A DNA stretch of 64,000 nucleotides from Candidatus Aenigmatarchaeota archaeon (lineage in GTDB: Archaea > Aenigmatarchaeota > Aenigmatarchaeia > CG10238-14 > SpSt-28), in assembly GCA_038733315.1 (NCBI GenBank), contig JAVYPJ010000001.1:333020-397019 (forward strand). Reading direction: 5' to 3'. A program made the translations under genes and the position numbers. A model generated the notes under the pieces. It was not told the origin of the DNA and searched no databases. It saw only the letters and a program-made list of their open reading frames with translations. Below, piece by piece: positions 40,723 through 64,000 of this stretch; position 1 is the stretch's first letter, and every line of letters starts with the position of its first letter.

Positions 40723-40988
40723 TAGAAATAGAAAAAATTGCTTGGCTTGCAAGAATAAAACTAGAAGAAAAAGAAAAGGAAGAATTATTTAAGGATATAT
40801 CTAAAATCTTAGAGATGTTTAAAAAAATACAAGAAGTAAAAATAGAGGAAAAGGATATTGATAGTGATGAAATTTTTGATTTTTTCTTTAGAGGAGAAAC
40901 TATAGCTGAAACTTTTGATAACGAAAAGATTTTGAAGAATTTTCCAAAAAGAGATGAAAATTTGTTAGAAGTTCCTAAGACATTATGA
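40719..40988 (+). CDS. gatC: Asp/Glu-tRNA amidotransferase subunit C
   Basis: IA.LARI.L..E, IL.N.P......VPK; directly precedes gatA. Confidence 0.9.
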   Translation: MIEIEKIAWLARIKLEEKEKEELFKDISKILEMFKKIQEVKIEEKDIDSDEIFDFFFRGETIAETFDNEKILKNFPKRDENLLEVPKTL

Positions 40989-47938: not shown

Positions 47939-49060
47939 ATGAGGTTTAAAGAAATTCCAAAAGAGCTTTTGAAAAGAGTTTATAAATGGAAAGTTTTAAT
48001 AGAAAGTAAAAATGAATTTTTTGGAAGTTCTCCGCCAAGTATTTTCGTATCTTCTGTGAATTATCCAAAAGTTAATATTGGTGCACTCTCTTTACCAATA
48101 ATAGATGAGAATAGCTATTATTTAGATTCTCCAGAGCTTTGGTATAAAGATGGTTTAGGTTTTGAGGAGATTATTGATTTAAGGTCTAGATTAATATACT
48201 CTTTTCAAAACGTTAACATCAAAAGAAAATTTAATTTTATTGAGAAAATTCAAGAATTGGCTTTAGCTAAGAATGTTGTAGATTTAGAGGTTAAACTAAA
48301 GAATAAACCGAAATTTAAGTTTTTGTTCGATAGGTTTATTTCTCCTATAGGTAATCCTGCAAAAATGGAAAATTTAAAAATTCAAAGTAATGTTAAGATT
48401 GAAAATTTTGTTGAAAGAATTATTAACGATGAAATAAAAGCTTATGATGCAGTTTTTTTACTTTATGAAAAGAATTTAGAAGTTTCGAGAATTCAAAAAA
48501 TTTTTTCTGCTGGGTTATTGGGAATAGAGAAAAAGATTATTCCAACAAGATGGAGTATTACAGCTATAGATAGTATTATTAGCGATAAATTGATAAAGAG
48601 AATCAGAGAGTATAAAATCTTAGATAAATTTCGGGTTTTTTATAATGAATATTTAGGGAACAAGTTTTGGATAGTTTTGTTGCCATACGTTTTTGGTTTT
48701 GAAATGGTAGAATTCATTGGAAATAAAATTTATCAAGATTATGAAATATTTTTTGAAAGAAAAAAGTATGCTGAAAATGTTGCAGGTGGTTATTATGCAG
48801 CTAGATTAGCATGCTGTGAATATTTAGAAAAAATAAGGAGACAAGCTGCTATTATAGTTTTTAGAAAGGTAGAAAAACTTTTTACAATTCCTTTGGGTGT
48901 GTGGAAAGTTAGAGAGTGTGTAAGAGGCGCTTTTAATAATAAATCAATAGAATTTAATTCTCAAGAGGAATTAGAGAAATATTTAATCGAAAATAATTTA
49001 GATATAAGCCTTAGCAAAATTTTAAAAATTTATAAAACTCAGAAAACCCTTATAATATAA
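47939..49060 (+). CDS. nreA: Nre-family DNA repair protein (DUF650/DUF651)
   Basis: GSSPPSIFV...YPKV, PTRWSITAID, GGYYAARL, PLGVW.VRE, C-terminal PIP-like QKTL. Confidence 0.92.
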   Translation: MRFKEIPKELLKRVYKWKVLIESKNEFFGSSPPSIFVSSVNYPKVNIGALSLPIIDENSYYLDSPELWYKDGLGFEEIIDLRSRLIYSFQNVNIKRKFNFIEKIQELALAKNVVDLEVKLKNKPKFKFLFDRFISPIGNPAKMENLKIQSNVKIENFVERIINDEIKAYDAVFLLYEKNLEVSRIQKIFSAGLLGIEKKIIPTRWSITAIDSIISDKLIKRIREYKILDKFRVFYNEYLGNKFWIVLLPYVFGFEMVEFIGNKIYQDYEIFFERKKYAENVAGGYYAARLACCEYLEKIRRQAAIIVFRKVEKLFTIPLGVWKVRECVRGAFNNKSIEFNSQEELEKYLIENNLDISLSKILKIYKTQKTLII

Positions 49061-49086
49061 TAAGAATTTTTGCAGTTTAGAAATTG

Positions 49087-49118
49087 TACTGCACAAATTT
49101 ATTAATTTTTGTGCAGTA
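49087..49118 (+). promoter_or_regulatory. Inverted repeat flanking a TATA-like box at the array start
   Basis: TACTGCACAAA-TTTATTAATT-TTTGTGCAGTA, perfect 11-bp arms. Confidence 0.7.
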
Positions 49119-49174
49119 TGATTTTTATGATAAAAAATAAATTGGAAAAATTTTTAATTAACTAAATAATTTAT

Positions 49175-50470
49175 ATGGAAAACTATAAAGATAAGTTAAT
49201 AGAATCTATAGAGGAGTTCTGGAGAAAAGAATTACCAATTTTGAAAGAAAGGGAAGTAAAGATAGATTTGGAAACAGAGCTTATTAACGATATAATAGGT
49301 GTTAGAAGGGCTGGAAAAACATCGGCAATGTTATTAACTATAAGTAAATTAGGAAAAGAAAGATGTATTTACTTAAATTTTGAAAATAGGAAGCTATTTC
49401 CTTTAACTAATAAGTACTTTGATGCTATAGTCGAGTTTATCTATGGTAGAGAATTACTTAAAAAATTTGGAAAAATTTACTTATTTCTAGATGAAGTTCA
49501 AAGGATAAACGAGTGGGAAAGATATGTAAGAAGTATTTATGATGAGTTTAAGGGTAAAATAAAAATATTCATTTCTGGATCAACTTCTAAATTATCAGCT
49601 TCAGAACTTTCAACTTTGCTAAGTGGGAGACATATTACTACTTATGTATTTCCGTTGAGTTTTAGGGAATTCTTAGGCTTTAAGGAGTTTAAGATTCCAA
49701 GTTTCTATATAGAGGAAGATAGGGCAAGAGTGTTAAGATTCTTAAAGGAATATATTGAATTTGGTGGTTTTCCAGAGGTGGTTTTAAGTGATAAAAAAGA
49801 AGAAATTCTTCAAACCCTAATGCTTGATATTATAAATAGAGATGTATTGCCAAGAGTTGTTAAAAGAGGAGAAATAGTTGAAGATTTTGTATATTTCTTA
49901 TGTAGTAACAGCGGAAAACTTTTAAGTTTCAACGAGATGGCAAGGTTATTTGCAAAAACATCTGTATTAACTGTTCAAAAAATTTTCAGCTTATTAAAGG
50001 ATGTTTTTCTTTTTTTCGACTTTTCTATATTTTCTTATAGTGTAAAAACTCAGCTTTTATATCCGAAAAAGATAATTTGTGTGGATCAAGGTTTTATAAA
50101 TCAATTTGGCTTTAAGTTTAGCGAAGATTGGGGTAGATTAATGGAGAATTTAGTTGGGATAGAACTTTTAAGAAGATATGGATTAATAGGAAAGACAAGG
50201 GTATTTTACTGGAAAGAATATGGAAAAAGAGATGGTAGCGAAGTAGATTTCGTTATTAAAGAAGGCTTAGAAATTAAGCAATTAATCCAAGTAACTTATG
50301 CTTCTAATAAAGATGAAATTGAAAAAAGAGAAATAAGGGCATTAATTAAAGCTTCAGAGCAATTAAAATGCAAAGACTTATTAATAATTACTTGGGATTA
50401 TGAGGATGAAATAAAAATAAATAGCAAAACAATTAAATGCATGCCTTTATGGAAATGGTTGTTAAAATAG
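49175..50470 (+). CDS. AAA_14/wHTH/DUF4143 ATPase, array copy 1
   Basis: GVRRAGKT, LDEVQ, SGS, GR, GGFPE, MEN, EVDFV. Confidence 0.93.
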   Translation: MENYKDKLIESIEEFWRKELPILKEREVKIDLETELINDIIGVRRAGKTSAMLLTISKLGKERCIYLNFENRKLFPLTNKYFDAIVEFIYGRELLKKFGKIYLFLDEVQRINEWERYVRSIYDEFKGKIKIFISGSTSKLSASELSTLLSGRHITTYVFPLSFREFLGFKEFKIPSFYIEEDRARVLRFLKEYIEFGGFPEVVLSDKKEEILQTLMLDIINRDVLPRVVKRGEIVEDFVYFLCSNSGKLLSFNEMARLFAKTSVLTVQKIFSLLKDVFLFFDFSIFSYSVKTQLLYPKKIICVDQGFINQFGFKFSEDWGRLMENLVGIELLRRYGLIGKTRVFYWKEYGKRDGSEVDFVIKEGLEIKQLIQVTYASNKDEIEKREIRALIKASEQLKCKDLLIITWDYEDEIKINSKTIKCMPLWKWLLK

Positions 50471-50512
50471 GGTTTTAAAAACTTTATTTATAAAAGTTTT
50501 TATTTAAATAAA

Positions 50513-50531
50513 TTTCCTTATTATAGGGAAA
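50513..50531 (+). promoter_or_regulatory. Palindromic operator upstream of copy 2
   Basis: TTTCCTTATTATAGGGAAA, with a further half-site TTTTCCTCATATAG after the TTTTTAAATA box. Confidence 0.65.
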
Positions 50532-50568
50532 ATTTTTAAATATATTTTCCTCATATAGTATACTATTT

Positions 50569-51840
50569 ATGATAAATAGAGAAGCCCTAATAGATTTCTT
50601 AAGAGAGTATGAAGAATTTCAACCGCAGATAATAAAAAGAGAATTAGAAATACCATTAGATACAAATTTTATAATTTCAATAATAGGTCCTAGAAGAGCT
50701 GGAAAAACGTATTATCTTTTTCAAATAAGAAACTTAAAACAAAATAGTTTATATTTAAATTTTGAAGATTCTCGTTTAATCGAGGCGAATTTTAGAGATA
50801 TAAGAGAAATTATAAGGTTGTTTGAAGAAATTTATGGAATTAAGCCACAATATTTACTTTTAGATGAGATAAATAATATTAAGAATTGGGAAATTGTAAT
50901 AAGAGAGATTCATGACCTTAAACTTTATAAAACAATTATTACTGGCTCTTCCTCTAAACTCTTGAGTAAGGAAATTTCAACAAAACTTAGAGGTAGAACT
51001 TTAAGTTATGTTTTATTTCCGTTTAGCTTTAGAGAGTTCTTATGTGCTAAAAGAATTTCTATTGAAAAATTTTTATCTAAGGAAAAAGAGGTTGAAATAA
51101 AAAGAAATTTAAGAGAGTATATTGAATTTGGCGGTTTTCCAGAGGTAATATTAAACGATAAAATTAAAATTAATATAATTAAGCAATATTACGATTTAAT
51201 TTTGTTCAGAGATTTTATAGAAAGGCATGAAATAAGAAATATAGGTTTTTCAAAGTTTTTGCTTAGTTTTATTTTGCAAAACTTTTCAAAAGAGATATCT
51301 GTAAAATCGATATATGATAAGGCCAAATCTTCTAATTTAAAAGTTTCGAAAGATACAGTTTATGATTATTTAGATAAATTGAGCGATACCTTAGTGTTTT
51401 TCTTTCTTGATAGATATTCTGTAAAGGTACATCTTAGAGAATCCTGGCCAAAGAAAATTTATGTTGTTGATAATGGTTTAACAAAGGCTGTAAGGTTTTC
51501 TCAAGATTTTGGAAAGTTAATGGAAAACTGTGTTTTTTTGGAATTAAAGAGAAAACAGAATAAAAATCCTTTACTAGAATTTTATTATCTGAGTAATAAT
51601 GATTACGAAGTAGATTTCGTTATTAAAGAAGGCTTAGAAATTAAACAGCTAATTCAAGTAACTTATGCTTCAAATAAAGATGAAATAGAAAAAAGAGAAA
51701 TAAAAGCTTTACTAAAAGCAAGTGAATTATTAAAATGCAAAGATTTATTAATAATTACTTGGGATTATGAAGATGAAATAAAAATAAATAGCAAAACAAT
51801 TAAATGCATACCTTTGTGGAAATGGCTATTGGAAACTTAA
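50569..51840 (+). CDS. AAA_14/wHTH/DUF4143 ATPase, array copy 2
   Basis: GPRRAGKT, LDEIN, TGSSS, LRGR, GGFPE. Confidence 0.93.
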   Translation: MINREALIDFLREYEEFQPQIIKRELEIPLDTNFIISIIGPRRAGKTYYLFQIRNLKQNSLYLNFEDSRLIEANFRDIREIIRLFEEIYGIKPQYLLLDEINNIKNWEIVIREIHDLKLYKTIITGSSSKLLSKEISTKLRGRTLSYVLFPFSFREFLCAKRISIEKFLSKEKEVEIKRNLREYIEFGGFPEVILNDKIKINIIKQYYDLILFRDFIERHEIRNIGFSKFLLSFILQNFSKEISVKSIYDKAKSSNLKVSKDTVYDYLDKLSDTLVFFFLDRYSVKVHLRESWPKKIYVVDNGLTKAVRFSQDFGKLMENCVFLELKRKQNKNPLLEFYYLSNNDYEVDFVIKEGLEIKQLIQVTYASNKDEIEKREIKALLKASELLKCKDLLIITWDYEDEIKINSKTIKCIPLWKWLLET

Positions 51841-51863
51841 AGTTTTTTGAATATTTCAATAGA

Positions 51864-51883
51864 TTTCCCTATATATAGGGAAA
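51864..51883 (+). promoter_or_regulatory. Palindromic operator upstream of copy 3
   Basis: Perfect 20-bp palindrome TTTCCCTATATATAGGGAAA, plus half-site TTTCCCTATATAT at 51898-51910. Confidence 0.75.
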
Positions 51884-51912
51884 CATTTATTTAAATCTTT
51901 CCCTATATATTT

Positions 51913-53202
51913 ATGGTAGAGAGCTTAAAAAGGTATCTACTAAACAAAAAGGAAGAAATAAAAAATTTGAATGTTAAAAAAAGGTTAATACATCATTCTT
52001 TTTCTATAGAGTTTGTTTCTTGCATAATAGGTCCTAGAAGAGCTGGGAAGACTTATTTTCTATATGACTTAATTCTCAATAAGTTAAATTTGAAAGATTC
52101 TGATTATCTTTTTGTAAATTTTGAGGATGATGAAATCAAAAGAATAGATAGAGAAAAAATTTCTAATATCATTCATTGTCATAACGAAATATATGGAAAA
52201 TATCCACAATATCTATTTTTTGACGAAATTCAAGCACTAGAAAATTGGCAAAGCTTCATTTATTCGTTTTATGAAAAGAAAAAATATTTTATTTTCATTA
52301 CCGGATCTTCTTCAAAATTATCTAGTAGAGAAATTGCAACACAATTAAGAGGGAGAAGTTATTCGTTAAAAGTTCTTCCATTCAGTTTTAAAGAAATTTT
52401 ATCTATTAAAAATTTCGATTTAAACAAAAATATTTTTTCTTCTTATGAGGAATCAGAAATTAAGCATATATTAAAAAATTATTTAGATAGAGGTGGATTT
52501 CCACAGCTATGGATAGAAAAAATTAATGAAAAAATATTTTTTAGAGATTATGTGGATGTTATAATTTTTAAAGATATAGTTGATAGATTTAAAATTAGGA
52601 ACATAACAGCAATAAAAATGTTAATTTCTTCTTGCGTTTCATCTTTTTCAAAGGAGTTTTCGATTAAAAAAATATATAACACTTTAAAGAGCACGGGAAT
52701 TAAAATTAGTAAAAATTCTTTATATTTATATTCTTCTATGTTAAGAGAAGTAATGTTTTGTTTTAACGTTTATAAGTTTAGTTATTCTGAAAGGGAAATT
52801 TTGGGTTCAATTCCAAAGATATATATCTGCGATGTTGGTATTCCAAATTTTTATTTATCCTCAAAAATAGATGAAAATATAGGCAGAATAATGGAAAATG
52901 TTGTTTTCTTAGAGCTATATAGAAATGAAAATATCGATGTTTTCTATTGGAAGGATTATCAGCAAAATGAAGTAGATTTTGTAATAAAAGAAGGCTTAGA
53001 AATTAAGCAATTAATTCAAGTAACTTATGCTTCTAATAAAGATGAAATAGAAAAAAGAGAAATAAAAGCTTTATTAAAGGCAAGTGAATTACTAAAATGC
53101 AAAGATTTATTAATAATTACTTGGGATTATGAAGATGAGTTAAAAGTAAATAGCAAAAAAATTAAATGCATACCTTTATGGAAATGGTTATTAGAAACTT
53201 AA
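51913..53202 (+). CDS. AAA_14/wHTH/DUF4143 ATPase, array copy 3
   Basis: GPRRAGKT, FDEIQ, TGSSS, LRGR, GGFP. Confidence 0.93.
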   Translation: MVESLKRYLLNKKEEIKNLNVKKRLIHHSFSIEFVSCIIGPRRAGKTYFLYDLILNKLNLKDSDYLFVNFEDDEIKRIDREKISNIIHCHNEIYGKYPQYLFFDEIQALENWQSFIYSFYEKKKYFIFITGSSSKLSSREIATQLRGRSYSLKVLPFSFKEILSIKNFDLNKNIFSSYEESEIKHILKNYLDRGGFPQLWIEKINEKIFFRDYVDVIIFKDIVDRFKIRNITAIKMLISSCVSSFSKEFSIKKIYNTLKSTGIKISKNSLYLYSSMLREVMFCFNVYKFSYSEREILGSIPKIYICDVGIPNFYLSSKIDENIGRIMENVVFLELYRNENIDVFYWKDYQQNEVDFVIKEGLEIKQLIQVTYASNKDEIEKREIKALLKASELLKCKDLLIITWDYEDELKVNSKKIKCIPLWKWLLET

Positions 53203-53257
53203 AGTTGTTCTATTAGAGAACAATTTCATATAAAAATCGTTTTGATATAGTACAATT
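53203..53257 (+). repeat. Exact 55-bp copy of the copy-7 upstream region (57392-57446), here without a gene
   Basis: AGTTGTTCTATTAGAGAACAATTTCATATAAAAATCGTTTTGATATAGTACAATT is identical at both loci. Confidence 0.95.
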
Positions 53258-53269
53258 TTTGTTGGGTTT

Positions 53270-53298
53270 ATCGGTCAAAATTTAAATATTTGACCGAT
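53270..53298 (+). promoter_or_regulatory. Orphan palindromic operator around a TATA-like box
   Basis: ATCGGTCAAA-ATTTAAATA-TTTGACCGAT, perfect 10-bp arms. Confidence 0.7.
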
Positions 53299-53309
53299 GT
53301 ATATTATTT

Positions 53310-53372
53310 ATGAATGAAGAAAAAAGAGTGATAAATATCTTTAGTAGTTTAATTAAAACTATGAAAAGTTAA
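53310..53372 (+). pseudogene. Probable N-terminal remnant of a deleted cassette (MNEEKRVINIFSSLIKTMKS)
   Basis: ATG at the expected distance from the orphan operator/TATA; stops after 20 codons. Confidence 0.45.
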
Positions 53373-53412
53373 GTGAACAAAAAATTTAAATTTTATTCAG
53401 TATACTTAATTT

Positions 53413-54663
53413 ATGAGGGAAATATTAGAGAGACAAAAGGTTGAGGTTAAAGAAATTCTATCAAAGGAAATTATTCCGAGGGAAAATATTAAAAATATAG
53501 AAGAGTATATAGATAAACCTCTGATAAAAGTCATTACGGGCATAAGGAGAAGCGGAAAATCGTTACTAGCATTACTGCTTTTGAAAGATAAAAATTATGG
53601 ATATGCGAATTTTGATGAAAAGGAGTTAACGACAATAAGATTAGATGATCTTTTAAACTATTTAAAAGAGGTATTTGGTGATTTTAAATTTTTGCTTCTT
53701 GATGAAATCCAAAATGTTAATGGCTGGGAACTTTGGGTTAACAGCTTGCAAAGAAGAGGTTATAATATTTTAATTACTGGCTCGAATGCAAAGTTGCTAA
53801 GTAAAGAATTGGCTACGCATCTAACTGGAAGATATATGGAATTTGAAAATTTTCCGTTTAGCTTTAGAGAGTTTTTAATATTTAAAAAATTTGACACTAA
53901 TAATTTACTTTTTTTAAAGGAAAAGCAAGGATTGGTAAAAAAATTACTAATGGAATACTTAGAAAAAGGTGGTTTTCCAGAATATTTAGTTTATAATCTA
54001 GATAAAAATTATTTGGAAACTCTTTTTCAATCTATAATTTATAAAGATGTTGTTAAAAGATGGAATATAAAATATCCTAGAAAAATAGACGATTTGGCAA
54101 GATATATTATTTCGAACTATTCTTCAAGATATACCTTTACTAAATTAAAAAATTCTTTAGATTTTAGAAGCGTTCTTACAGTTGAAAATTACATAAAATA
54201 TTTAGAGGAGGCTTATCTTATATTTTCGCTTGAGAGATTTTCCTTTAAGGTTAAAGAAATGAAAAAATCGCCAAAAAAAGCTTATTGTATTGATACAGGC
54301 ATGATAAATGCTATTTCTGTTAAATTTTCAAAAGATATTGGAAGATTAATGGAAAATCTTGTATTTTTGGAGCTTAAAAGAAAGGGGTTAAAGGAAAATC
54401 TCTCAATATTTTACGGTCAGTTTAATAATAGCGAAGTAGATTTTGTAATTAAAGAAGGGTTAGAAATTAAGCAATTAATTCAAGTAACTTATGCTTCAAA
54501 TAAAGATGAAATTGAAAAAGGAGAAATAAGGGCATTAATTAAAGCTTCAGAGCAATTAAACTGCAAAGACTTATTAATAATTACTTGGGATTATGAAGAT
54601 GAGTTAAATTTTGAAAACAAAACAATTAAATGCATACCCTTATGGAAATGGTTGTTATTTTAG
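53413..54663 (+). CDS. AAA_14/wHTH/DUF4143 ATPase, array copy 4
   Basis: GIRRSGKS, LDEIQ, TGSNA, LTGR, GGFPE. Confidence 0.93.
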   Translation: MREILERQKVEVKEILSKEIIPRENIKNIEEYIDKPLIKVITGIRRSGKSLLALLLLKDKNYGYANFDEKELTTIRLDDLLNYLKEVFGDFKFLLLDEIQNVNGWELWVNSLQRRGYNILITGSNAKLLSKELATHLTGRYMEFENFPFSFREFLIFKKFDTNNLLFLKEKQGLVKKLLMEYLEKGGFPEYLVYNLDKNYLETLFQSIIYKDVVKRWNIKYPRKIDDLARYIISNYSSRYTFTKLKNSLDFRSVLTVENYIKYLEEAYLIFSLERFSFKVKEMKKSPKKAYCIDTGMINAISVKFSKDIGRLMENLVFLELKRKGLKENLSIFYGQFNNSEVDFVIKEGLEIKQLIQVTYASNKDEIEKGEIRALIKASEQLNCKDLLIITWDYEDELNFENKTIKCIPLWKWLLF

Positions 54664-54756
54664 CTACATAACTGCAAGCTTTTTAAAAATGTTTGTGATT
54701 ATTAAAGTTTCATATTATGAGTAAACTTTTTAAATAATCTTTCCTAAATATATGAT

Positions 54757-56040
54757 ATGTTTGAGAAAGATTTTGTGCTTCAATATTTTGATAGAATTAT
54801 TGAGAAAATTAAAGTTGAAAGGATTTTTGAAAGAGAGTTAAAAGTAGATTTTCTTAAAAATAAGGCTATAGCAATAATTGGACCAAGAAGAGCTGGAAAA
54901 ACTTATTTTTTACTTAATATTTTAAAAAATAATAAAAATGCTTTATATGTTGATTTGGAACATTCTGCCTTCAAAGAAATTACACATAAAGAATTTTTTG
55001 AAATAATATCGATTTTTGAAGAGTATTTTAAAACTAGAGTTGAAAAAGTGATTATCGATGAAATACAAAATTTAAATAACTGGGAAAGTTTAGTCAGGAG
55101 TTTGCTTGATAGCGGATATTATTTGATGGTTTCAGGTTCTTCTTCAAAATTGTTAAGTAAAGAAGTTTCAACTCAATTAAGGGGAAGAAGCTTAAGTTAT
55201 GTTTTATTGCCTTTAAGTTTTAGAGAATATTTTAAATTTAAAAATATAGAAAGAAAAAAACTTATATCAATTTCTGAAAAAGTGAAGATAATTAAACTTT
55301 TAGAAGAGTTCTTAGAATGGGGTAGTTATCCAGAAATATTGGTTTATCCAGAAAAAAAGGAAAAAATTTTAAAAGAATACTTTGATACAATTTTTCAAAG
55401 AGATTTTATAGAAAGATTTGAAATAGTTCATACTTATATTGCAAAATTACTCTTCGAATTTGCTATTCAAAACTTTTCAAAAGAAATAAGTTTAAACAAA
55501 ATAGCTAATTTTATTTCTTCAAAAATCGGAAGAAATATTAAAAATATTGTTTATGATTATGCAGAAAAATTACCAGAAAGTTTGAGCATATTTTTTGTAG
55601 AAAAATTTAGTAAAAGCATTTATGAAAGAAAATCTCTAGGAAGAAAAATTTATGTTTGTGATTTGGGTTTAGTGTCGATGTTAAGTATGGAAAAAAATAT
55701 AGGAAGAAGAATGGAAAACGCTGTTTTTCTTGAATTATTAAGAAACACTAATTTTAATCCCTTACAAGAAATCTATTATTTCAAAGATTATCAACAAAAC
55801 GAAGTAGATTTCTTAATTAAAGAAGGCTTAGAAATTAAGCAATTAATTCAAGTAACTTATGCTTCAAATAAAGATGAAATTGAGAAAAGAGAAATAAAGG
55901 CTTTGTTAAAAGCAAGTGAATTACTAAAATGCAAAGATTTATTAATAATTACTTGGGATTATGAGGATGAAATAAAAATAAATAACAAAACAATTAAATG
56001 CATTCCATTATGGAAATGGTTGTTAAAAAATATGGAATAA
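54757..56040 (+). CDS. AAA_14/wHTH/DUF4143 ATPase, array copy 5
   Basis: GPRRAGKT, IDEIQ, SGSSS, LRGR, GSYPE. Confidence 0.93.
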   Translation: MFEKDFVLQYFDRIIEKIKVERIFERELKVDFLKNKAIAIIGPRRAGKTYFLLNILKNNKNALYVDLEHSAFKEITHKEFFEIISIFEEYFKTRVEKVIIDEIQNLNNWESLVRSLLDSGYYLMVSGSSSKLLSKEVSTQLRGRSLSYVLLPLSFREYFKFKNIERKKLISISEKVKIIKLLEEFLEWGSYPEILVYPEKKEKILKEYFDTIFQRDFIERFEIVHTYIAKLLFEFAIQNFSKEISLNKIANFISSKIGRNIKNIVYDYAEKLPESLSIFFVEKFSKSIYERKSLGRKIYVCDLGLVSMLSMEKNIGRRMENAVFLELLRNTNFNPLQEIYYFKDYQQNEVDFLIKEGLEIKQLIQVTYASNKDEIEKREIKALLKASELLKCKDLLIITWDYEDEIKINNKTIKCIPLWKWLLKNME

Positions 56041-56095
56041 AAATGTCAATTTTTCACGATAACTTTATTAATTTTTATCGTATATATAAGATAAT

Positions 56096-57391
56096 ATGAA
56101 AGAAGATAAAATAAAAAAACTAATTTATGAATTTTGGGAAAAGGATTTAAAGGAGGTAAGAGAGCGAATAGTAAATCTTAAATTTCTTTCGAAAAATCTT
56201 GTTAATGATATAGTTGGGGTAAGAAGAGCTGGAAAAACATATTTTCTATTTTTCTTAACAAAAAAGCTAGAAAAGGAATTTGGAAGAGAACAGTTTATAT
56301 ATTTAAATTGCGAACATAGAAGTATTTATCCTTTAAAGGTTGAAGAGCTAAATTATTTAGTTAAGTTTTTTCATGAGGAAGATTTATTAAATAAAAAAAT
56401 TTTTCTTTTTTTAGATGAAGTTCAAGCAGTTAAGGGTTGGGAAATTTTCGTTAAAAGTATTTATGATGAATTCGAAAATAAAATAAAAATAATAGTTTCT
56501 GGCTCTGTTAAATCTCTTCTTTCCAAAGATTATGGGAGATTTTTGAGCGGAAGGCATCAAACAATAAAAATATTTCCTTTATCCTTTAAAGAATATCTTA
56601 TTTTTAAAGATATTCAAGCGGAAAGAATTACAGAAGAAAAGGAGGCAAAGATTAGAAAAGCTGCAAAAAATTTTTTGAAATATGGTTCTTTTCCAAAGTA
56701 TGTATTAACAGAGGATTTAACATATCTTGAACAAATTTTTAGCGATATAATTGAAAGAGATATAAAGAGTAGAGTTGAGATTAGGAAAAAAGATGTAATA
56801 GACGAGCTTATAAATCTTTTGTTAGAAAGGGCCGCTTCTAAGATATCTTTTACTAAACTTAAAAACTTACTTCGGTCAAAGGGTTATAGGATAAGTACTG
56901 ATTTAATAATAAGGTATGCCTCGATTTGTGAAGATGTATTTCTTTTTTTCTTTTTACCTATTTATTCTGCAAAATACTCAGAAGTAATAAAGAATCCTAA
57001 AAAGGTTTATGTTGTTGATAACGGTTTTATTAACTTATTTCCATTAAGAATTTCAGAAAATTTTGGTAAACTAATGGAGAATTGCGTATTCTTAGAATTA
57101 ATAAAATCAGGTTTTGATGTAGGGAAGGAAATATCTTATTATAAAGTTAATGATTACGAAGTAGATTTTGTAATTAAAGAAGGTTTAGAAATTAAACAGC
57201 TAATTCAAGTAACATATGCTTCAAATAAAGATGAAATAGAAAAAAGAGAAATAAGGGCATTAATTAAAGCTTCAGAGCAATTAAACTGCAAAGACTTATT
57301 AATAATTACTTGGGATTATGAAGATGAAATAAATTTTGAAAACAAAAAAATTAAATGCATACCTTTATGGAAATGGTTATTGGAAACTTAA
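56096..57391 (+). CDS. AAA_14/wHTH/DUF4143 ATPase, array copy 6
   Basis: GVRRAGKT, LDEVQ, SGS, LSGR, GSFP. Confidence 0.93.
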   Translation: MKEDKIKKLIYEFWEKDLKEVRERIVNLKFLSKNLVNDIVGVRRAGKTYFLFFLTKKLEKEFGREQFIYLNCEHRSIYPLKVEELNYLVKFFHEEDLLNKKIFLFLDEVQAVKGWEIFVKSIYDEFENKIKIIVSGSVKSLLSKDYGRFLSGRHQTIKIFPLSFKEYLIFKDIQAERITEEKEAKIRKAAKNFLKYGSFPKYVLTEDLTYLEQIFSDIIERDIKSRVEIRKKDVIDELINLLLERAASKISFTKLKNLLRSKGYRISTDLIIRYASICEDVFLFFFLPIYSAKYSEVIKNPKKVYVVDNGFINLFPLRISENFGKLMENCVFLELIKSGFDVGKEISYYKVNDYEVDFVIKEGLEIKQLIQVTYASNKDEIEKREIRALIKASEQLNCKDLLIITWDYEDEINFENKKIKCIPLWKWLLET

Positions 57392-57446
57392 AGTTGTTCT
57401 ATTAGAGAACAATTTCATATAAAAATCGTTTTGATATAGTACAATT

Positions 57447-58772
57447 ATGAGGGAAGAGGATTTTAAAGTAGTGCTTTCTCGATGGAAATCTTTTGAAATG
57501 CCGGAGCTTATAGAAAGGGAAATAAAAATACCTTTAGAACCAACAACCATAGTTAGTATAATAGGTCCAAGACAAGCTGGTAAAACTTATAGAATGTTGC
57601 AAGCGATTAAGGATCTTTCTAAAATAATATCAAAAGAAAACATTCTTTATGTGAATTTTGAGCATGAAAGATTGAGAAACTTGGATGCAAAAAATTTGGA
57701 AGATATGATGAAGGTTTTTTATCAGATTTTTACGCCAGATGAAAAATCTCCAATTTACCTTTTTTTTGATGAAATTCAAAATGTTAGAGATTGGGATAAA
57801 TGGATTAGAAGAATTTATGATAGTGGAAAGTTTAGGATTTTTATTTCTGGCTCCTCTTCAAAGCTTTTAGCAAAAGAAATAGCAACATCTTTAAGGGGAA
57901 GAAGTATAGATTTTGTTATATTTCCTTTTAACTTTAGAGAATTTTTAAAAGCAAAAAAATTTGAAATAGGTGATATAAAAATATTAAGCTATTTAGAGGA
58001 AAGGGGAAAAATTTTAAGGCTAGCTGAAGAGTTTGTCAAATTTGGGGGCTATCCGAAGGTTGTTCTAACAGAAGATTATGAATTAAAGGAAAAAATATTA
58101 GAATCTTATTATGAGGCAATTTTTTATAAAGATTTAGTAGAAAGATATAAACTCGATCCTGTTTTGCTTGACAACTTTTTAAGATATGCCATAACGTGTT
58201 TTTCTAAGCAACTTAGTATATCAAAAATTTTTAACTATTTAAAGAGTATAGGTTTAAAATGTAGCAAATCAACTTTAATTAAATTTTTAAAATATGCGGA
58301 GGAAATATTTTTCCTTTTTCCAATTGAAATTTTTTCATTTTCAATAAAAGAAAAAAGACAATATCCGAAAAAGTTCCATGTTGTTGATAACGGAATTATT
58401 AGAGCAATTTATCCTGAAGCTGAAGAGAGTTTTGGTAGGTTAATCGAAAATTGTGTGGCTATAGAATTATTGAGAAGAAAATACGCTAAGAAAATAGAGA
58501 TTAATTATTGGAGAGAATATGGAAAAAGAGATGGTAGCGAAGTAGATTTTGTAATTAAAGAAGGCTTAGAAATTAAACAGCTAATTCAAGTAACTTATGC
58601 ATCAAATAAAGATGAAATAGAAAAAAGAGAAATAAGGGCATTAATTAAAGCTTCAGAGCAATTAAAATGTAAAGATTTATTAATAATTACTTGGGATTAT
58701 GAAGATGAAATAAATGTTGAAAACAAAACAATTAAATGCATACCATTGTGGAAATGGTTATTAAGAATTTAA
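57447..58772 (+). CDS. AAA_14/wHTH/DUF4143 ATPase, array copy 7
   Basis: GPRQAGKT, FDEIQ, SGSSS, LRGR, GGYP. Confidence 0.93.
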   Translation: MREEDFKVVLSRWKSFEMPELIEREIKIPLEPTTIVSIIGPRQAGKTYRMLQAIKDLSKIISKENILYVNFEHERLRNLDAKNLEDMMKVFYQIFTPDEKSPIYLFFDEIQNVRDWDKWIRRIYDSGKFRIFISGSSSKLLAKEIATSLRGRSIDFVIFPFNFREFLKAKKFEIGDIKILSYLEERGKILRLAEEFVKFGGYPKVVLTEDYELKEKILESYYEAIFYKDLVERYKLDPVLLDNFLRYAITCFSKQLSISKIFNYLKSIGLKCSKSTLIKFLKYAEEIFFLFPIEIFSFSIKEKRQYPKKFHVVDNGIIRAIYPEAEESFGRLIENCVAIELLRRKYAKKIEINYWREYGKRDGSEVDFVIKEGLEIKQLIQVTYASNKDEIEKREIRALIKASEQLKCKDLLIITWDYEDEINVENKTIKCIPLWKWLLRI

Positions 58773-58790
58773 AAGCTATATAATTTAAAA

Positions 58791-58840
58791 TATGTCACAA
58801 GTGACGTAAAATATTAATTTTTTATGTCATAAATGATATA
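58791..58840 (+). promoter_or_regulatory. Two related palindromes flanking the TATA-like box of copy 8
   Basis: TATGTCACAAGTGACGTA and TATGTCATAAATGATATA. Confidence 0.65.
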
Positions 58841-58841
58841 T

Positions 58842-60161
58842 ATGAAGAAAGAGGAAATAATAAGTGTATTATCTTCGGTTAATTTTTGGGGAAGAGAAGA
58901 TATAGATGTAGGAATAGAGAGAAAATTTTATAATTCTCAAATATTAAATTTTTTAAAAGGTGTTGAAAAAGTAATAACAATAACAGGAGTTAGAAGGAGT
59001 GGAAAGAGTTATATATTAAAGCAAATTGGAAAAAAGTTATCAGAAAAGTTTGGAAAAGAAAACGTTCTTTATGTTAATTTCGAAGAAGTTAAATTTTTTG
59101 AGGAGCTAAGCTTATCTTTTTTAATAAAAATATACGATGCTTTTAAAGAAATTGTGAGACCAAAAACAAAACCTTTTTTAATTTTGGATGAAATTCAAGA
59201 GGTTCCAAAATGGGAAAAGTTTGTTAGAAGTTTGCATGAAAAAAAAGAAGCTTTTCTTATAATTTCTGGCTCTTCTTCAAAGCTTTTTAGTGAAGAGCTC
59301 GCTACTTTATTAGCTGGTAGAGAATTAGAGATAGAAGTATTTCCATTAGATTTTAAAGAGTTTCTCCAGTTTAAAAATTTTGAAATAGATAAAGAAATAG
59401 ATTTAATTATAAAAAAAGAAAAAATTATAAGATTTCTTAGAGAATTTTTAGAATTCGGTGGTTTTCCAGAGGTTGTTTTAGAAGAAAATGAAAACAAGAA
59501 AATTGGTATTATTAGAAAATATTTTGATACAATAGTATTAAAAGATGTTTTAAGAAGGTTTAAATTAAGAGAAAGTTATAAGTTAGAGGCACTTTGTAAT
59601 TATTACGTTTCAAACTTTTCAAACTTAATAACTTTTAATTCTGTTGCAAGATTTCTTAAAATTTCTGAAAAAACTACTGAAAGATTTTCAAAGTATTTAC
59701 AAACTGCAAGAATTATATTTTTTGTTGAGAGATTTTCATATTCATTTAAATCAAGATATAAATCTGCTAGGAAAGTTTATGTTATAGATACTTCTTTTTC
59801 AAATTTATTAGGAATAAGGTTTTCAGAAAATATAGGTAGACTTATGGAAAATTTGGTCGCTATGGAATTATTAAGAAGATTGAAGAGAAGTTTAAAAGAA
59901 AATTTCTTTTATTTGAAAATTAATGATAACGAAGTAGATTTTGTAATTAAAGAAGGTTTAGAAATTAAGCAATTAATTCAAGTAACTTATGCATCTAATA
60001 AAGATGAAATTGAAAAAAGAGAAATAAAGGCTTTGTTAAAAGCAAGCGAAATATTAAAATGTAAAGATTTACTAATAATTACTTGGGATTATGAAGATGA
60101 AATAAAAATAAATAACAAAAAAATTAAATGCATGCCTTTATGGAAATGGCTATTGGAATAG
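58842..60161 (+). CDS. AAA_14/wHTH/DUF4143 ATPase, array copy 8 (alternative start 58833)
   Basis: GVRRSGKS, LDEIQ, SGSSS, LAGR, GGFPE. Confidence 0.93.
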   Translation: MKKEEIISVLSSVNFWGREDIDVGIERKFYNSQILNFLKGVEKVITITGVRRSGKSYILKQIGKKLSEKFGKENVLYVNFEEVKFFEELSLSFLIKIYDAFKEIVRPKTKPFLILDEIQEVPKWEKFVRSLHEKKEAFLIISGSSSKLFSEELATLLAGRELEIEVFPLDFKEFLQFKNFEIDKEIDLIIKKEKIIRFLREFLEFGGFPEVVLEENENKKIGIIRKYFDTIVLKDVLRRFKLRESYKLEALCNYYVSNFSNLITFNSVARFLKISEKTTERFSKYLQTARIIFFVERFSYSFKSRYKSARKVYVIDTSFSNLLGIRFSENIGRLMENLVAMELLRRLKRSLKENFFYLKINDNEVDFVIKEGLEIKQLIQVTYASNKDEIEKREIKALLKASEILKCKDLLIITWDYEDEIKINNKKIKCMPLWKWLLE

Positions 60162-60192
60162 GATATTTTTCAGAAGTTGTTTTACTTAGGGG

Positions 60193-60232
60193 TTATTGTA
60201 GTACAATATTTATAAATATTGTTCTATAATAA
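60193..60232 (+). promoter_or_regulatory. 40-bp palindrome centred on the TATA box of copy 9
   Basis: TTATTGTAGTACAATATT-TATA-AATATTGTTCTATAATAA (two mismatched pairs). Confidence 0.75.
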
Positions 60233-60238
60233 TTATTT

Positions 60239-61510
60239 GTGAGGACAATTTTAAAAGAGCTTATTGAAGAATGGAAAGAAAGAGAGTTGCCAAAAATAAT
60301 TGAAAGAGATAAAGATCCCACTAGGCTAATTGATTGGAAAGTTTTTAATGCCATACCAATAATTGGTTTTAGAAGAGTTGGGAAGACGTTTTTGCTTTTA
60401 AATGTGGCGAGAAAGATAGGAAAGGAAAATACAATTTATATAGACTTTGAAGACGAGAGATTGCCGAGAAAAACAGAAGTTTTAACTTATTTTTCCGATG
60501 TTATAAAGGAGATCTATGGTAAGAAAAAACTTATTCTTTTGTTAGATGAAATTCAAAACATTCCTAACTGGAGTAAGTGGGTGAGAAGAATGTTAGATAG
60601 TTTTAACTATCAAATAATTTTATCTGGTTCTTCTTCAAAACTTTCAAGCAAGGAAATTCCAACTGAATTGAGAGGAAGATGTATAACTTTTGAACTTTAT
60701 CCACTTTCATTCTTAGAATTTTTGAGATTTAAAGGAGAAAATATAAATGAGTTGACAGATGCTCTCAAATTAAATTTATTGAGAGAGTATATAATTTTTG
60801 GGGGATTGCCAGAAGTTGTGCTTTCGGAAGAGGCAAAAAAATATTTGCTAATCGAAGAATATTATAAAACTTTTCTTGTTCGCGATATTTTTGAGCGATA
60901 TAATATAAGAAATAAAGAATTAATGAGAGATCTTATAAGGCTTTTACTTAATTCAACTTATATAACTATAACAAAAACTTTCAATACTTTAAAATCTATT
61001 GGTCATAAAGTAGGAAAGGAAACAATTGCTAACTATTTTTACTACTTGGAAAATTCTTTCTTTATAGAATTTTTGGAAATTTTTTCACCAAAAATAAAGA
61101 ATTCTTTAAAAGCGCCAAGAAAAATTATGCTTATTGATAATTTCTTCATAAAAAGATTTTCTAGATTTTCAGAAAATATGGGAAGATTAATGGAAAATTG
61201 CGTTTTTTTACAATTAAAAAGAAAAATTAGTGAAAATCCTCTAGCTGAAATTTACTATTTCAAAGATTATCAGCAAAACGAAGTAGATTTTGTAATTAAA
61301 GAAGGTTTAGAAATTAAGCAATTAATTCAAGTAACTTATGCTTCAAATAAAGATGAAATAGAAAAAAGAGAAATAAGGGCATTAATTAAAGCTTCAGAGC
61401 AATTAAACTGCAAAGACTTATTAATAATTACTTGGGATTATGAAGATGAAATAAATTTTGAAAACAAAAAAATTAAATGCATACCTTTATGGAAATGGCT
61501 ATTAAGTTAA
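60239..61510 (+). CDS. AAA_14/wHTH/DUF4143 ATPase, array copy 9 (GTG start)
   Basis: GFRRVGKT, LDEIQ, SGSSS, LRGR, GGLPE. Confidence 0.93.
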   Translation: MRTILKELIEEWKERELPKIIERDKDPTRLIDWKVFNAIPIIGFRRVGKTFLLLNVARKIGKENTIYIDFEDERLPRKTEVLTYFSDVIKEIYGKKKLILLLDEIQNIPNWSKWVRRMLDSFNYQIILSGSSSKLSSKEIPTELRGRCITFELYPLSFLEFLRFKGENINELTDALKLNLLREYIIFGGLPEVVLSEEAKKYLLIEEYYKTFLVRDIFERYNIRNKELMRDLIRLLLNSTYITITKTFNTLKSIGHKVGKETIANYFYYLENSFFIEFLEIFSPKIKNSLKAPRKIMLIDNFFIKRFSRFSENMGRLMENCVFLQLKRKISENPLAEIYYFKDYQQNEVDFVIKEGLEIKQLIQVTYASNKDEIEKREIRALIKASEQLNCKDLLIITWDYEDEINFENKKIKCIPLWKWLLS

Positions 61511-61514
61511 TTTT

Positions 61515-62273
61515 TTAAAATCTTTTTGAAAATATATTTTGAAATATGTTTAAAAATTTTTTTAAACTATTTTCTTTTTTTATTTCTATTCCAGCAATTT
61601 TTGAAATTATAGAATTTATTTGATCTCTAAAATTTTTATCTAAGTTATATAGCATTTCTCTTCTTAAATCTGCATATTTTGCTTTTTTACTTTCTTCAAT
61701 TATTGATAAAATATTTGTATTAATTAAATTTTGAAAATCTTTTAAATTTAGTGGCGAATCTTTTTCGTATCTATTAATTATTATTCCTAAAACTTTTTTA
61801 TTAAGTTTATTTGCTAATTGAGAACATTTTATTGAATCGAAAAGAGATGAAATAGTTGGATTTGAAACAATAATTATTTCTTCGCTAAATTTTATAGCTG
61901 TTATAGCTTCTCTTCCAAATCCTGGTGCAGAATCTAATAAAACAAAATCAAAAAAGTTTAAATTTTCTTTTAATTTTTCTAAATTTTCTAATTTTAAGGA
62001 AGTTATTTCTTCTAAGTTTAAAGATGGAGAAATGTAGAAAAAGTTAAAAGTTGGGTTTAATATTTCATAAAAATCTGCTTCTTCGCTTAAAAATTCGTTT
62101 AAAGTAAATTTTGGTTTTGAAGTTAAAAAAAGAGAAATGTGTGGAGTTGTAAAATTAAAATCTATTAATAAAGTTTTAAAACCAAAATTCGATAATGCAT
62201 AAGATAAATTTAAAGAAATTAATGTTTTTCCAACTCCTCCTTTTCCGCTTATTAATGAAATAATTCTTACCAT
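61515..62273 (-). CDS. MinD/ParA-family ATPase
   Basis: SGKGGVGKT, LLIDFN, DFVLLDSAPG, GIIINR. Confidence 0.92.
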   Translation of the reverse strand: MVRIISLISGKGGVGKTLISLNLSYALSNFGFKTLLIDFNFTTPHISLFLTSKPKFTLNEFLSEEADFYEILNPTFNFFYISPSLNLEEITSLKLENLEKLKENLNFFDFVLLDSAPGFGREAITAIKFSEEIIIVSNPTISSLFDSIKCSQLANKLNKKVLGIIINRYEKDSPLNLKDFQNLINTNILSIIEESKKAKYADLRREMLYNLDKNFRDQINSIISKIAGIEIKKENSLKKFLNIFQNIFSKRF

Positions 62274-62728: not shown

Positions 62729-64000
62729 ATGAAAAGTTTAATTAATAAATTATTTTTTGTAGTTTTTTTAATTTTATTTATTTCTATTTCTTCAGATGTT
62801 ATAATTGAAATACCTCCTCATTCTAATAGAAGTGTTCAGGCAAATGTTAGTTCTCAGCTATTTAATTTTACTATTAATAATACCGAAGAAAATTCGATAA
62901 TTCGAGTTAACATAACTTTACCTAATGGCTTTAATTATGTTTCGGATTCTGCAAATACTAATGCTTTGTTTGAAAGTTTTGAAGTTTATGAAAATACTTT
63001 AAGCTGGTATAATTCTTCTGGATTAATTTCAGATTTATCTTATACTCAAGAAAATTCTATTAAATATAAGCTTACAAAAAAACTTAAGAATAGTAGAGGA
63101 GAATTTGTAGGAAGAATTAAGCTTTTGAAAGATGGAGTTGAAGTTCCTGAGAGTTCTCTTAAAAGTTTGCCTAGAGGAAAATATGACTTGATAGCTTTTG
63201 ATAATAAAGGTTTTATTAGAATAAATGGTATTAATATTACTAAGGATCTTAATATAGAGATTTGGATTGACGAGTATAAAGAAAATAATAAACCAAAAAA
63301 TGCAATTATTTCTACTCCAATAATTGTCTTCAATGACAGTGAAGTTGAATTTGACAATGCAACAATCGTTCTAAGGAAAAATGGAGTAACAAACGTTTTG
63401 CTTCATTGTAAAGATTGGGATTTTATTAATTTTAATTGCTTAGAGTGGGAATCTCCTATAGATTTAGTTTTGAGTTCGGGACAAAACGAGACTCATATTT
63501 GGTTTACTGTTAAAAGATTTGCTGCATGGGGAGCGGGAGGTTTAACTTGCGATGAAGGTGATTTAAATTCTACTTGTTTAATTGGTACAAGTGTTACAAT
63601 ACCTAATCTTGGAGTTATTAGTGGAACTGGAAACTTGTTGATAAATGGGACTGGAGAGCTAACGGCTGCTGCTGGAGAAAGGTTTTTTATTAATATGGGT
63701 GGATGGATTAAAATCGAATCTGGGGGAAAGATTACTGGAAATGTTAACATAACAGCAACAAATTTAATAATAGAACCAGGAGGAAAAATAGATGTAAGTG
63801 CTAAGGGATATTTAGGAGGTAGTGTTGGAGCTAATGGACAAGGTCCAGGAAGAGGAATTCACGGCTCAAGTTATGCTGGTTCAGGAGCGGGATATGGTGG
63901 AAAAGGAGGTAATGACGCTCAAAATGATGCAGGAGGTGATAGTTATGGAAGCATTACTCAACCAATTGATTTTGGATCTGGAGGAGGAGGAAGTTATAGT
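62729..64000 (+). CDS. Large secreted/surface glycoprotein, runs off right edge
   Basis: Manually translated MKSLINKLFFVVFLILFISISS signal peptide; many N-x-S/T sites; Gly-rich GAGYGGKGG...YGSITQPIDFGSGGG. Confidence 0.85.
   Translation, partial: MKSLINKLFFVVFLILFISISSDVIIEIPPHSNRSVQANVSSQLFNFTINNTEENSIIRVNITLPNGFNYVSDSANTNALFESFEVYENTLSWYNSSGLISDLSYTQENSIKYKLTKKLKNSRGEFVGRIKLLKDGVEVPESSLKSLPRGKYDLIAFDNKGFIRINGINITKDLNIEIWIDEYKENNKPKNAIISTPIIVFNDSEVEFDNATIVLRKNGVTNVLLHCKDWDFINFNCLEWESPIDLVLSSGQNETHIWFTVKRFAAWGAGGLTCDEGDLNSTCLIGTSVTIPNLGVISGTGNLLINGTGELTAAAGERFFINMGGWIKIESGGKITGNVNITATNLIIEPGGKIDVSAKGYLGGSVGANGQGPGRGIHGSSYAGSGAGYGGKGGNDAQNDAGGDSYGSITQPIDFGSGGGGSYS

Follow-up and report, generated by a model that had tools for sequence, protein, structure and literature searches.

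PDC-S01, a phage defense candidate of the PADLOC collection that belongs to COG1373, combines an AAA_14 ATPase domain with a DUF4143 domain. According to PMC12988326, it is among the commonest candidate defense genes of prokaryotes and is enriched in archaea, and its mode of action is not known; that paper treats PDC-S01 as a single-gene system and does not contain the word "tandem." DUF4143 is listed in the PD-(D/E)XK superfamily by Steczkiewicz et al. (2012). Here we describe a locus at which genes of this domain order stand in tandem. It lies in a 64-kb stretch (here called the window, to whose positions coordinates refer unless another contig is named) of contig JAVYPJ010000001.1, which belongs to the Aenigmatarchaeota-like DPANN genome of a hot-spring archaeon (G000; 733 kb, 7 contigs; completeness, 94%; G+C content, 27%). 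The nine genes of the array carry dissimilar 5' bodies and a common 3' block. The locus is probably a tandem array of complete PDC-S01 genes in which the 3' block is under strong selection and homologous recombination mixes these blocks and moves the units.

The genes are complete, co-oriented open reading frames (ORFs) on the + strand at positions 49175-61510 (416 to 442 amino acids [aa]; Table 1). AAA_14 (PF13173; E = 1.6e-38 to 1.9e-30, above the curated cut-off) and DUF4143 (PF13635; E = 1.6e-22 to 4e-15; 56 to 80 bits against a cut-off of 28.1) were both found in 9 of 9 genes, and the Walker A (G..GK) and Walker B (D-E) motifs are invariant, so that the nine intact AAA_14-DUF4143 genes of the initial annotation were recovered at their exact coordinates. 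The four genes submitted to PADLOC all matched the PDC-S01 model PDLC04787 over nearly the full length (E = 3e-86 to 4e-113), and four genes matched 0 families of NCBIfam. They are candidate defense genes, on the basis of the PADLOC candidate label. Every unit is a full-length ORF with a start codon and its own upstream spacer, which sets the array apart from silent-cassette systems of the pilE/pilS or vlsE type, in which a single expression site is accompanied by partial, promoterless donors. The genome carries 14 members of the family, i.e., the nine array genes, a second array of three genes with the same 3' block (B1 to B3, on contig C2), and two genes (D1 and D2; contig C1:264849-267988) that are divergently oriented, are about 26 to 34% identical to the array genes, and lack the shared block. 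A D2-like gene is also present in G009, a genome of another genus.

We defined the tail as the last 77 codons, from EVDF to WKWLL (231 nucleotides [nt], i.e., the block of about 230 bp), and the body as everything before it. Among the 36 pairs of the nine genes, bodies are 0.30 to 0.43 identical at the protein level (mean, 0.35) and 0.49 to 0.59 at the DNA level, which agrees with the earlier view that they share little beyond catalytic motifs. Tails are 0.85 to 1.00 identical in protein and 0.844 to 0.973 in DNA (mean, 0.896). At EVDF, a span of about 30 codons takes the mean pairwise protein identity (20-codon windows) from 0.33 to 0.99. The abrupt edge reported in the initial annotation is thus real, but its description of the tails as nearly identical overstates a DNA identity of 84 to 97%.

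The difference extends to synonymous sites. Across the 66 pairs of the 12 tail-bearing G000 genes, the proportion of synonymous differences (pS) is 0.39 in the tail (range, 0.15 to 0.63) and 0.63 in the body (range, 0.52 to 0.73, i.e., saturated), and the proportion of nonsynonymous differences (pN) is 0.05 and 0.43, respectively. The tail is thus the younger part, though not a uniform one, and synonymous saturation equal to that of the body, which would have refuted the initial proposal, was not observed. Where residues agree, they share a codon in 3400 of 4327 cases in tails (79%) and in 4381 of 7909 cases in bodies (55%), compared with 54% predicted from codon usage. That most synonymous positions coincide, as had been proposed, is literally true, but a tail pS of 0.39 makes the phrase too strong. 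Shared-codon use in tails and bodies is 0.71 and 0.55 within a genome, 0.75 and 0.62 within the genus, 0.65 and 0.58 between genera, and 0.46 and 0.41 between families. Since the excess in tails fades with distance, shared descent or conversion fits better than a DNA signal conserved everywhere.

Bodies and tails have discordant histories. We aligned 61 full-length tail-bearing genes from G000 and ten relatives and compared the number of genome-label changes on the tail DNA tree and on the body tree with 200 shuffles of the labels. All of the genomes compared are metagenome bins; G004 and G001 are congeners of G000, and G009, G012, and G014 represent other genera. On the body tree, the labels change 42 times (41.0 in shuffles; as low in 159 of 200), with 12 changes for the 12 G000 rows, i.e., the labels are fully scattered. 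With the exception of A7 and B1, the tail-bearing G000 genes all have bodies 86 to 99% identical to a counterpart in another genome, and within G000 itself the identity between paralogous bodies does not exceed 57%. On the tail tree, the labels change only 19 times (41.1 in shuffles; as low in 0 of 200). All 12 G000 tails fall in a clade of 21 rows from their own genus (support, 93), and the tails of G009, G012, and G014 form another clade (24 rows; support, 99). The expectation that bodies would group with other genomes and tails with the host lineage was therefore borne out; the expected single homogenized tail was not, since the tails form a genus-level and not a genome-level clade. Grouping of tails by lineage (at the genus level) and of bodies by ortholog is the pattern of concerted evolution.

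The same discordance is visible within single genes. Bodies reach 80% identity or more in 32 pairs of genes from different genomes; because the sequences are related, these pairs do not count as independent. The tail has the higher pS in 30 of them and the lower in 1, and in 1 the two values are equal. For A5 in G000 and G004, pS is 0.08 in the body and 0.50 in the tail, with the switch at EVDF. Difference density likewise jumps at EVDF in the A2-type genes of G012 and G014 (body pS, 0.02; tail pS, 0.51) and in the x1-type genes of G012 and G009 (0.07 and 0.66). The A8 body has a pS of 0.08 against G004 and 0.22 against G009, and its tail has a pS of 0.44 and 0.53, respectively. Between orthologs, body pN/pS is about 0.1, which indicates that the "variable bodies" are stable ancient types under purifying selection and are not hypervariable.

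The tails themselves are mosaics. Their variable sites are arranged in blocks; the copies show these blocks in every combination, and G004 shares them. In the pairwise homoplasy index (PHI) test, the value observed for the 12 G000 tails was reached in 0 of 2000 permutations, as was that for the G009 tails; the counts were 10 of 2000 for the nine array tails alone and 4 of 2000 for the G000 and G004 tails combined. The minimum number of recombination events (Rm) in the G000 tails is at least 17 in 225 nt. The tails of A6 and A9 share an exact run of 162 nt and differ at 6 of 225 sites, while every other pair shares at most 82 identical nt, which suggests a recent conversion between copies that stand three units apart.

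Units have moved between lineages, as judged from sequence divergence, long after the genomes split, and the tails stayed lineage-typical. Two conserved proteins set the baseline. A GTPase is 91% identical between G000 and G004 (pS, 0.30), 45 to 46% identical between G000 and G009, G012, or G014, 57% identical between G012 and G009, and 86% identical between G012 and G014 (pS, 0.61). NreA is 79% identical between G000 and G004, 39 to 45% identical between G000 and the three genomes of other genera, and 38% identical between G012 and G009. (GatB and a class II aminoacyl-tRNA synthetase were dropped as baseline proteins, since GatB had no match in four relatives and the synthetase matches were only 33 to 38% identical.) Cassette bodies are 86 to 96% identical between G000 and the genera of G009, G012, and G014, and two body types are 98 to 99% identical between G012 or G014 and G009 (pS, 0.06 to 0.11). 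The genes that flank those arrays on the same contigs are only 24 to 43% identical to G000.

Such identities, like the mosaics and the unit order, could in principle be artefacts of chimeric joins at the tails or of mis-binned contigs. The arrays do break contigs in G009 and G014, and the 162 bases common to A6 and A9 could favor false joins. Nevertheless, we consider an artefact highly improbable. In three separate assemblies, the arrays lie inside long contigs (G000, 397 kb; G004, 549 kb; G012, 481 kb), tail pairs other than A6 and A9 have at most 82 identical bases in common, and chimeras would not cluster tails by genus. Mis-binning does not explain the cross-genus identity either, since the similar cassettes stand beside diverged flanks and G009 contig C12 bears both cassettes and the GTPase that is 45% identical. 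Viral carriers were also sought: 133 pattern matches were obtained in viral contigs, and with this query 0 of them encode a relative. A search for strain variants in metagenome contigs returned 25 stretches with a 21-nt tail core; these represent further types, with bodies 40 to 76% identical (best segments) to a library of 61 bodies.

Which DNA travels can be read from the spacers and junctions. The 50 to 70 nt before each start codon, which contain a TATA-like box, are kept with the body type across genomes, whatever gene stands upstream (e.g., the A2 spacer accompanies the A2 body type in four genomes). This identifies the unit as spacer plus body and supports the earlier proposal of a traveling unit of promoter and variable body; from their sequence, the spacers are putative promoters. 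In addition, the spacers at 49061-49174, 50471-50568, 51841-51912, 56041-56095, 58773-58832, and 60162-60238 carry short inverted repeats, specific to the body type, on or beside the TATA-like box, often with a third half-site about 32 nt downstream (e.g., before A2, A3, A8, and B2). These repeats are conserved with the body type across genera. Individually, only 3 of 12 beat shuffled sequences; taken together, the repeats score above 300 control upstream regions (Mann-Whitney P = 1.6e-4). The winged helix of the unit's own product may bind them as operators.

Comparison of the arrays between nreA and minD revealed that related genomes do not carry identical sets of units. The syntenic array of G004 reads nreA, a 50-nt tail stub, A3', A5', A8', and minD, i.e., three units compared with nine in G000. 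A5' and A8' keep the spacers that precede A5 and A8 in G000, and whole units are missing between the G004 units. The G004 tail ahead of A8' is nearest to the G000 A7 tail, which precedes A8 in G000 (13 differences, compared with 33 against A5's own tail). In G012 and G014, whose flanks are 97.8% identical, an A2-type unit occupies the third place in one array but heads the other, and G014 contains one unit more. The relocated unit takes along the 3' part of its upstream tail, and its own tail in G014 ends like the stub before the next unit in G012; both of its ends lie within tails. The G012 "stub" proved to be a pseudo-cassette with an internal deletion. In the latest transfers (x2 and A8), high identity extends from within the upstream tail through the spacer and body into the first third of the unit's own tail, which is the pattern that crossovers inside tails would leave. 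In G001, of the same genus, all that stands at the second-array site is a single complete tail that lacks a body, and this tail is 96% identical to the A2 tail of G000. The second array of G004 (L009; G004:C1:502500-508000) consists of a B1-like gene broken into two ORFs of 226 and 113 aa and, after it, a B2-type gene, with no B3.

Some junctions record losses. The first 55 nt of the long spacer between A3 and A4 equal the entire spacer before A7, and a 64-nt exact match joins the A3 end to the A6 end. Next come the promoter and the remaining 19 codons of a unit that has been lost, of the type found in G009 (L005:3183), where the motif precedes an intact gene, and then the A4 promoter. The spacer before A1 (49061-49174) contains a promoter-like inverted repeat of an x1-type unit, known from G012, G014, and G009, whose body is absent; by its sequence, it looks like another scar of a lost unit.

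On the basis of these observations, we propose the following mechanism. Ancient body types, at least about 20 of them and each well conserved, would form a pool and pass between genera. Strong selection on the protein would hold the 231-nt tail sufficiently alike for the host's homologous recombination. Gene conversion would mix the tails and lead to partly concerted evolution within a lineage; the sharp edge at EVDF would follow if conversion tracts run to the edges of homology. Unequal or ectopic crossovers within tails would delete, duplicate, move, or capture units of the form tail 3' part, promoter spacer, body, and tail 5' part, including DNA from other lineages. No integrase, transposase, or reverse transcriptase family was detected in the 12 ORFs scanned around the G000 array (7 ORFs of at least 250 aa within about 14 kb upstream and 5 flanking ORFs), in line with the initial annotation, and no recombinase family was detected in these 12 ORFs or in 12 flanking ORFs of relatives (ORFs of at least 110 aa were scanned). 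With no recombinase gene detected near the arrays, the agent is likely to be ordinary homologous recombination. We infer that it is of the RadA type; any circular intermediate, a role in defense, and a selective value of the shuffling are likewise conjectural parts of this scheme.

The tail is not peculiar to these genomes. We scanned one genome per species with two tail motifs and obtained at least 630 stretches, of which at least 491 encode relatives; up to 80 of these represent 69 distinct loci. Among the matches listed from this tail-seeded search, the tail from EVDF to WKWLL occurs in 100 of 125 family ORFs at the 69 loci, in bins labeled Aenigmatarchaeota, Woesearchaeota, Nanoarchaeota, Micrarchaeota, Thermoplasmata, Thermoproteota, Methanosarcinales, Methanophagales, and some bacterial phyla. 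Given the seeding and the possible mis-binning of short contigs, these matches indicate breadth and not frequency. Tail variants that are specific to a lineage and common to tandem neighbors were also seen elsewhere, i.e., in one bin each of DHVE2, Thermoplasmata, and Nanoarchaeota (in the last, in the 3' half only). Several bacterial-labeled bins (L039, L041, L050, L060, L063, L095, L096, and L098; several on short contigs) contain a near-identical tail protein. Their labels are Omnitrophota, Elusimicrobia, Saccharibacteria, Spirochaetes, Clostridia, and Atribacterota, and their tails reflect either cross-domain transfer or mis-binning.

Several results weigh against the proposed mechanism. 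Since the tail protein is conserved across many phyla, selection on the protein alone explains much of its constancy. Tails differ at 6 to 38 of 225 sites within G000, as much as between G000 and G004, which implies that homogenization is weak or slow. The G012 and G014 tails gave no PHI signal (638 of 2000 permutations). In 19 ortholog pairs with different upstream neighbors, divergence is the same for the tail of the unit itself as for the tail upstream of it (37.7 and 35.2 differences; Wilcoxon P = 0.30). Linkage to the flanking half-tails is seen only in the most recent transfers, and we rejected a general rule by which each tail would go with the unit downstream of it. Several losses did not use the tails, namely, the G004 stub, the scar between A3 and A4, and the pseudo-cassette in G012 and G014. 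Finally, an exact repeat of 162 nt in metagenome bins could mislead an assembler.

Taken to their limit, these points would leave protein constraint and passive gene conversion as the only forces on the tail, with units gained, lost, and transferred by unrelated deletions and insertions. The breadth of the tail, the low pN relative to pS, the fading excess of shared codons, and the loss junctions outside tails all fit this account. We nevertheless regard it as unlikely, since both ends of the relocated G012/G014 unit lie within tails, G004 units adjoin with whole units missing between them and spacers intact, and the high identity in recent transfers begins in the interior of an upstream tail and ends in the first third of the unit's own. 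The claim that the tail is a site for gain, loss, and reordering of units thus stands for the unit differences and the relocation with junctions in tails and fails for several of the losses. With recombination within tails still the favored explanation, a bolder form of it is conceivable, and we hold it tentatively: the tail would be kept as a translated "docking sequence," and the arrays would be a homology-driven, recombinase-free counterpart of integrons, served by a community pool of at least 20 ready-to-express cassettes among hot-spring DPANN. Cassettes would be captured, stacked, reordered, and shed at any tail, a lone tail such as that of G001 would be a landing pad, and each cassette would bring its own promoter and perhaps its own DNA specificity.

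Structural models place the tail within a nuclease fold. The AlphaFold2 (AF2) model of A7 (58-row alignment; predicted local distance difference test [pLDDT] score, 92.6) resolves into an AAA+ module, parts with helical and winged-helix structure, and an alpha/beta domain at the C terminus. Taken as a whole, it most resembles two archaeal ATPases, SSO1545 and PABY2304, followed by Orc1/Cdc6, RFC, and CED-4/NLR modules. The C-terminal domain (pLDDT, 88) has a predicted restriction-endonuclease-like fold; it is closest to McrC (Foldseek E = 2.2e-4; VIA Z = 8.4, root mean square deviation of 3.4 over 119 residues), followed by Can2, Card1, EcoT38I, Bse634I, Cfr10I, and Hjc (Z from 8.4 down to 5 over this list). 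At the sequence level, a search of the PDB gave 0 matches, and no relation to McrC was detectable. The tail begins at strand beta2 (E365 in the A7 model) and runs to the C terminus, i.e., it makes up about two thirds of the fold. The boundary cuts through one domain, because the variable body contributes helix alpha1 and strand beta1. Strand beta3 reads E-V-K in tail-less members (e.g., D1, L031_8166, and L041_9598) and E-V-R in D2, compared with Q-V-T in 60 of 68 rows of tail-bearing genes and Q-V-T, Q-V-C, or Q-V-S in 91 of 100 tail-bearing genes of other taxa among the matches listed. The D of EVDF is kept, and the canonical (D/E)-x-K signature is lacking in tail-bearing genes; from these residues, we infer that the tail-bearing clade either is not a canonical nuclease or relies on other residues. 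The replacement of E-x-K and the boundary within the fold make it doubtful that the tail is a "constant effector," as had been suggested.

A fold of this kind raises the possibility of co-assembly. Folds like those of McrC, Can2, and type II restriction enzymes often dimerize, and the tail, being two thirds of a domain nearest to them, might be the C-terminal block through which paralogs form mixed oligomers or dock on a shared partner; selection for compatible partners in the same cell would then hold the tails alike, with recombination being only the means. That tails cluster by host lineage regardless of body type would fit. We find this explanation quite improbable: the tails of one genome differ by 3 to 17% in DNA and by as much as 15% in protein, and genomes share the same tail variants.

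The array is embedded among other chromosomal genes (Table 1). On the left, a radical-SAM gene and nreA adjoin it; farther upstream are the GTPase, a class II aminoacyl-tRNA synthetase, gatA, gatB, rtcA, two tRNAs, and ribosomal protein S3, the two tRNAs being the only Rfam matches upstream of the array. The block of class II aminoacyl-tRNA synthetase, gatA, and gatB (39511-43722) is missing at the syntenic place in G004 and may be an acquired block or a replacement. Downstream of minD, an open-ended ORF of 424 aa (62729-64000) has no Pfam match. In G009, the array is followed by a gene (L005:10079-11275) with an HATPase_c_4 domain (annotated as the C terminus of a RecG-like helicase) and a helix-turn-helix (HTH) domain; genes that combine HATPase_c_4 and HTH occur in defense contexts.

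Table 1. Array genes, the long spacer, and the flanking genes in the 64-kb window
Feature	Positions	Strand	Length (aa)	Tail	Remarks
nreA	47939..49060	+			left flank, conserved chromosomal gene; Nre_N E = 1.8e-77; 79% identical to G004 array flank
A1	49175..50470	+	431	50240-50470	body 89% identical to gene of G009 (another genus)
A2	50569..51840	+	423	51607-51840	body 93% identical to G012 and G014 genes
A3	51913..53202	+	429	52969-53202	body 90% identical to first unit of syntenic G004 array
Long spacer with scars	53203..53412	+			between A3 and A4
A4	53413..54663	+	416	54433-54663	body 92% identical to G009 gene; none in G004 array
A5	54757..56040	+	427	55801-56040	body 98% identical to G004 copy
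A6	56096..57391	+	431	57158-57391	none in G004 array
A7	57447..58772	+	441	58539-58772	protein modeled; nearest body 59% identical (another family)
A8	58833..60161	+	442	59931-60161	body 99% identical to G004, 96% to G009
A9	60239..61510	+	423	61280-61510	GTG start; body 88% identical to G012 gene
minD/ParA-type ATPase gene	61515..62273	-			right flank; 98% identical to G004 array flank

In genome-reduced DPANN archaea, the PDC-S01 family thus appears as a pool of stable types that move between genera whose core proteins are only 38 to 57% identical, and a short translated block acts as the common junction of the units. If this is correct, tiny genomes would have a route to a changeable immune repertoire without dedicated mobility enzymes. 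It would also suggest that specificity resides in the body (the ATPase, the winged helix, and the initial portion of the nuclease fold), whereas the tail would have a role common to all units, e.g., in assembly or in binding a partner, and natural chimeras would be available for testing both ideas. In the literature searched, we found no description of a shared-tail array, of the pool of types, or of the Q-x-T nuclease variant; the main text of a preprint on embedded defense candidates does not mention PDC-S01, and its supplements may hold more.

The array resembles several known systems in part. Like McrBC, which pairs the AAA+ protein McrB with the PD-(D/E)XK protein McrC, it couples an AAA+ module with a domain closest to McrC, but in one polypeptide, with a winged helix between the modules and the canonical E-x-K replaced. 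It shares with integrons the order of co-oriented, exchangeable units, a repeat at each junction, and an apparent common pool of cassettes. However, no IntI-type recombinase was detected in the 12 ORFs around it or the 12 ORFs of relatives, the repeat is a translated coding sequence, unlike the noncoding imperfect inverted repeats of attC sites, the units bear their own promoter regions, and the junctions are spread along the repeat without a single core site. The likeness to an integrase-free integron that the initial annotation had drawn finds no support in the two hallmarks checked, i.e., an adjacent IntI and promoterless cassettes behind a common promoter, both of which are lacking. In the orphan toxin cassettes downstream of rhs and cdiA, a conserved coding stretch provides the homology for module swaps, and displaced remnants accumulate. 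There, the 5' part is constant and the 3' toxin part varies, and the orphans lack promoters and starts, whereas the polarity of the array is reversed and its units are complete genes with promoter-like spacers. In plants and fungi, unequal crossing-over and gene conversion shape the evolution of NLR/STAND immune-receptor gene clusters. These clusters likewise consist of tandem, nucleotide-binding, immune-type genes whose repertoire is reshaped by recombination among paralogs, and the modeled array fold resembles Orc/Cdc6, CED-4, and NLR modules. In those clusters, sensor repeats usually exchange and diversify, whereas the bodies of the array are stable and exchange is confined to the constant 3' block. 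The array is thus probably a case of concerted evolution and unequal crossing-over in tandem immune-type genes, i.e., a known process in a new form.

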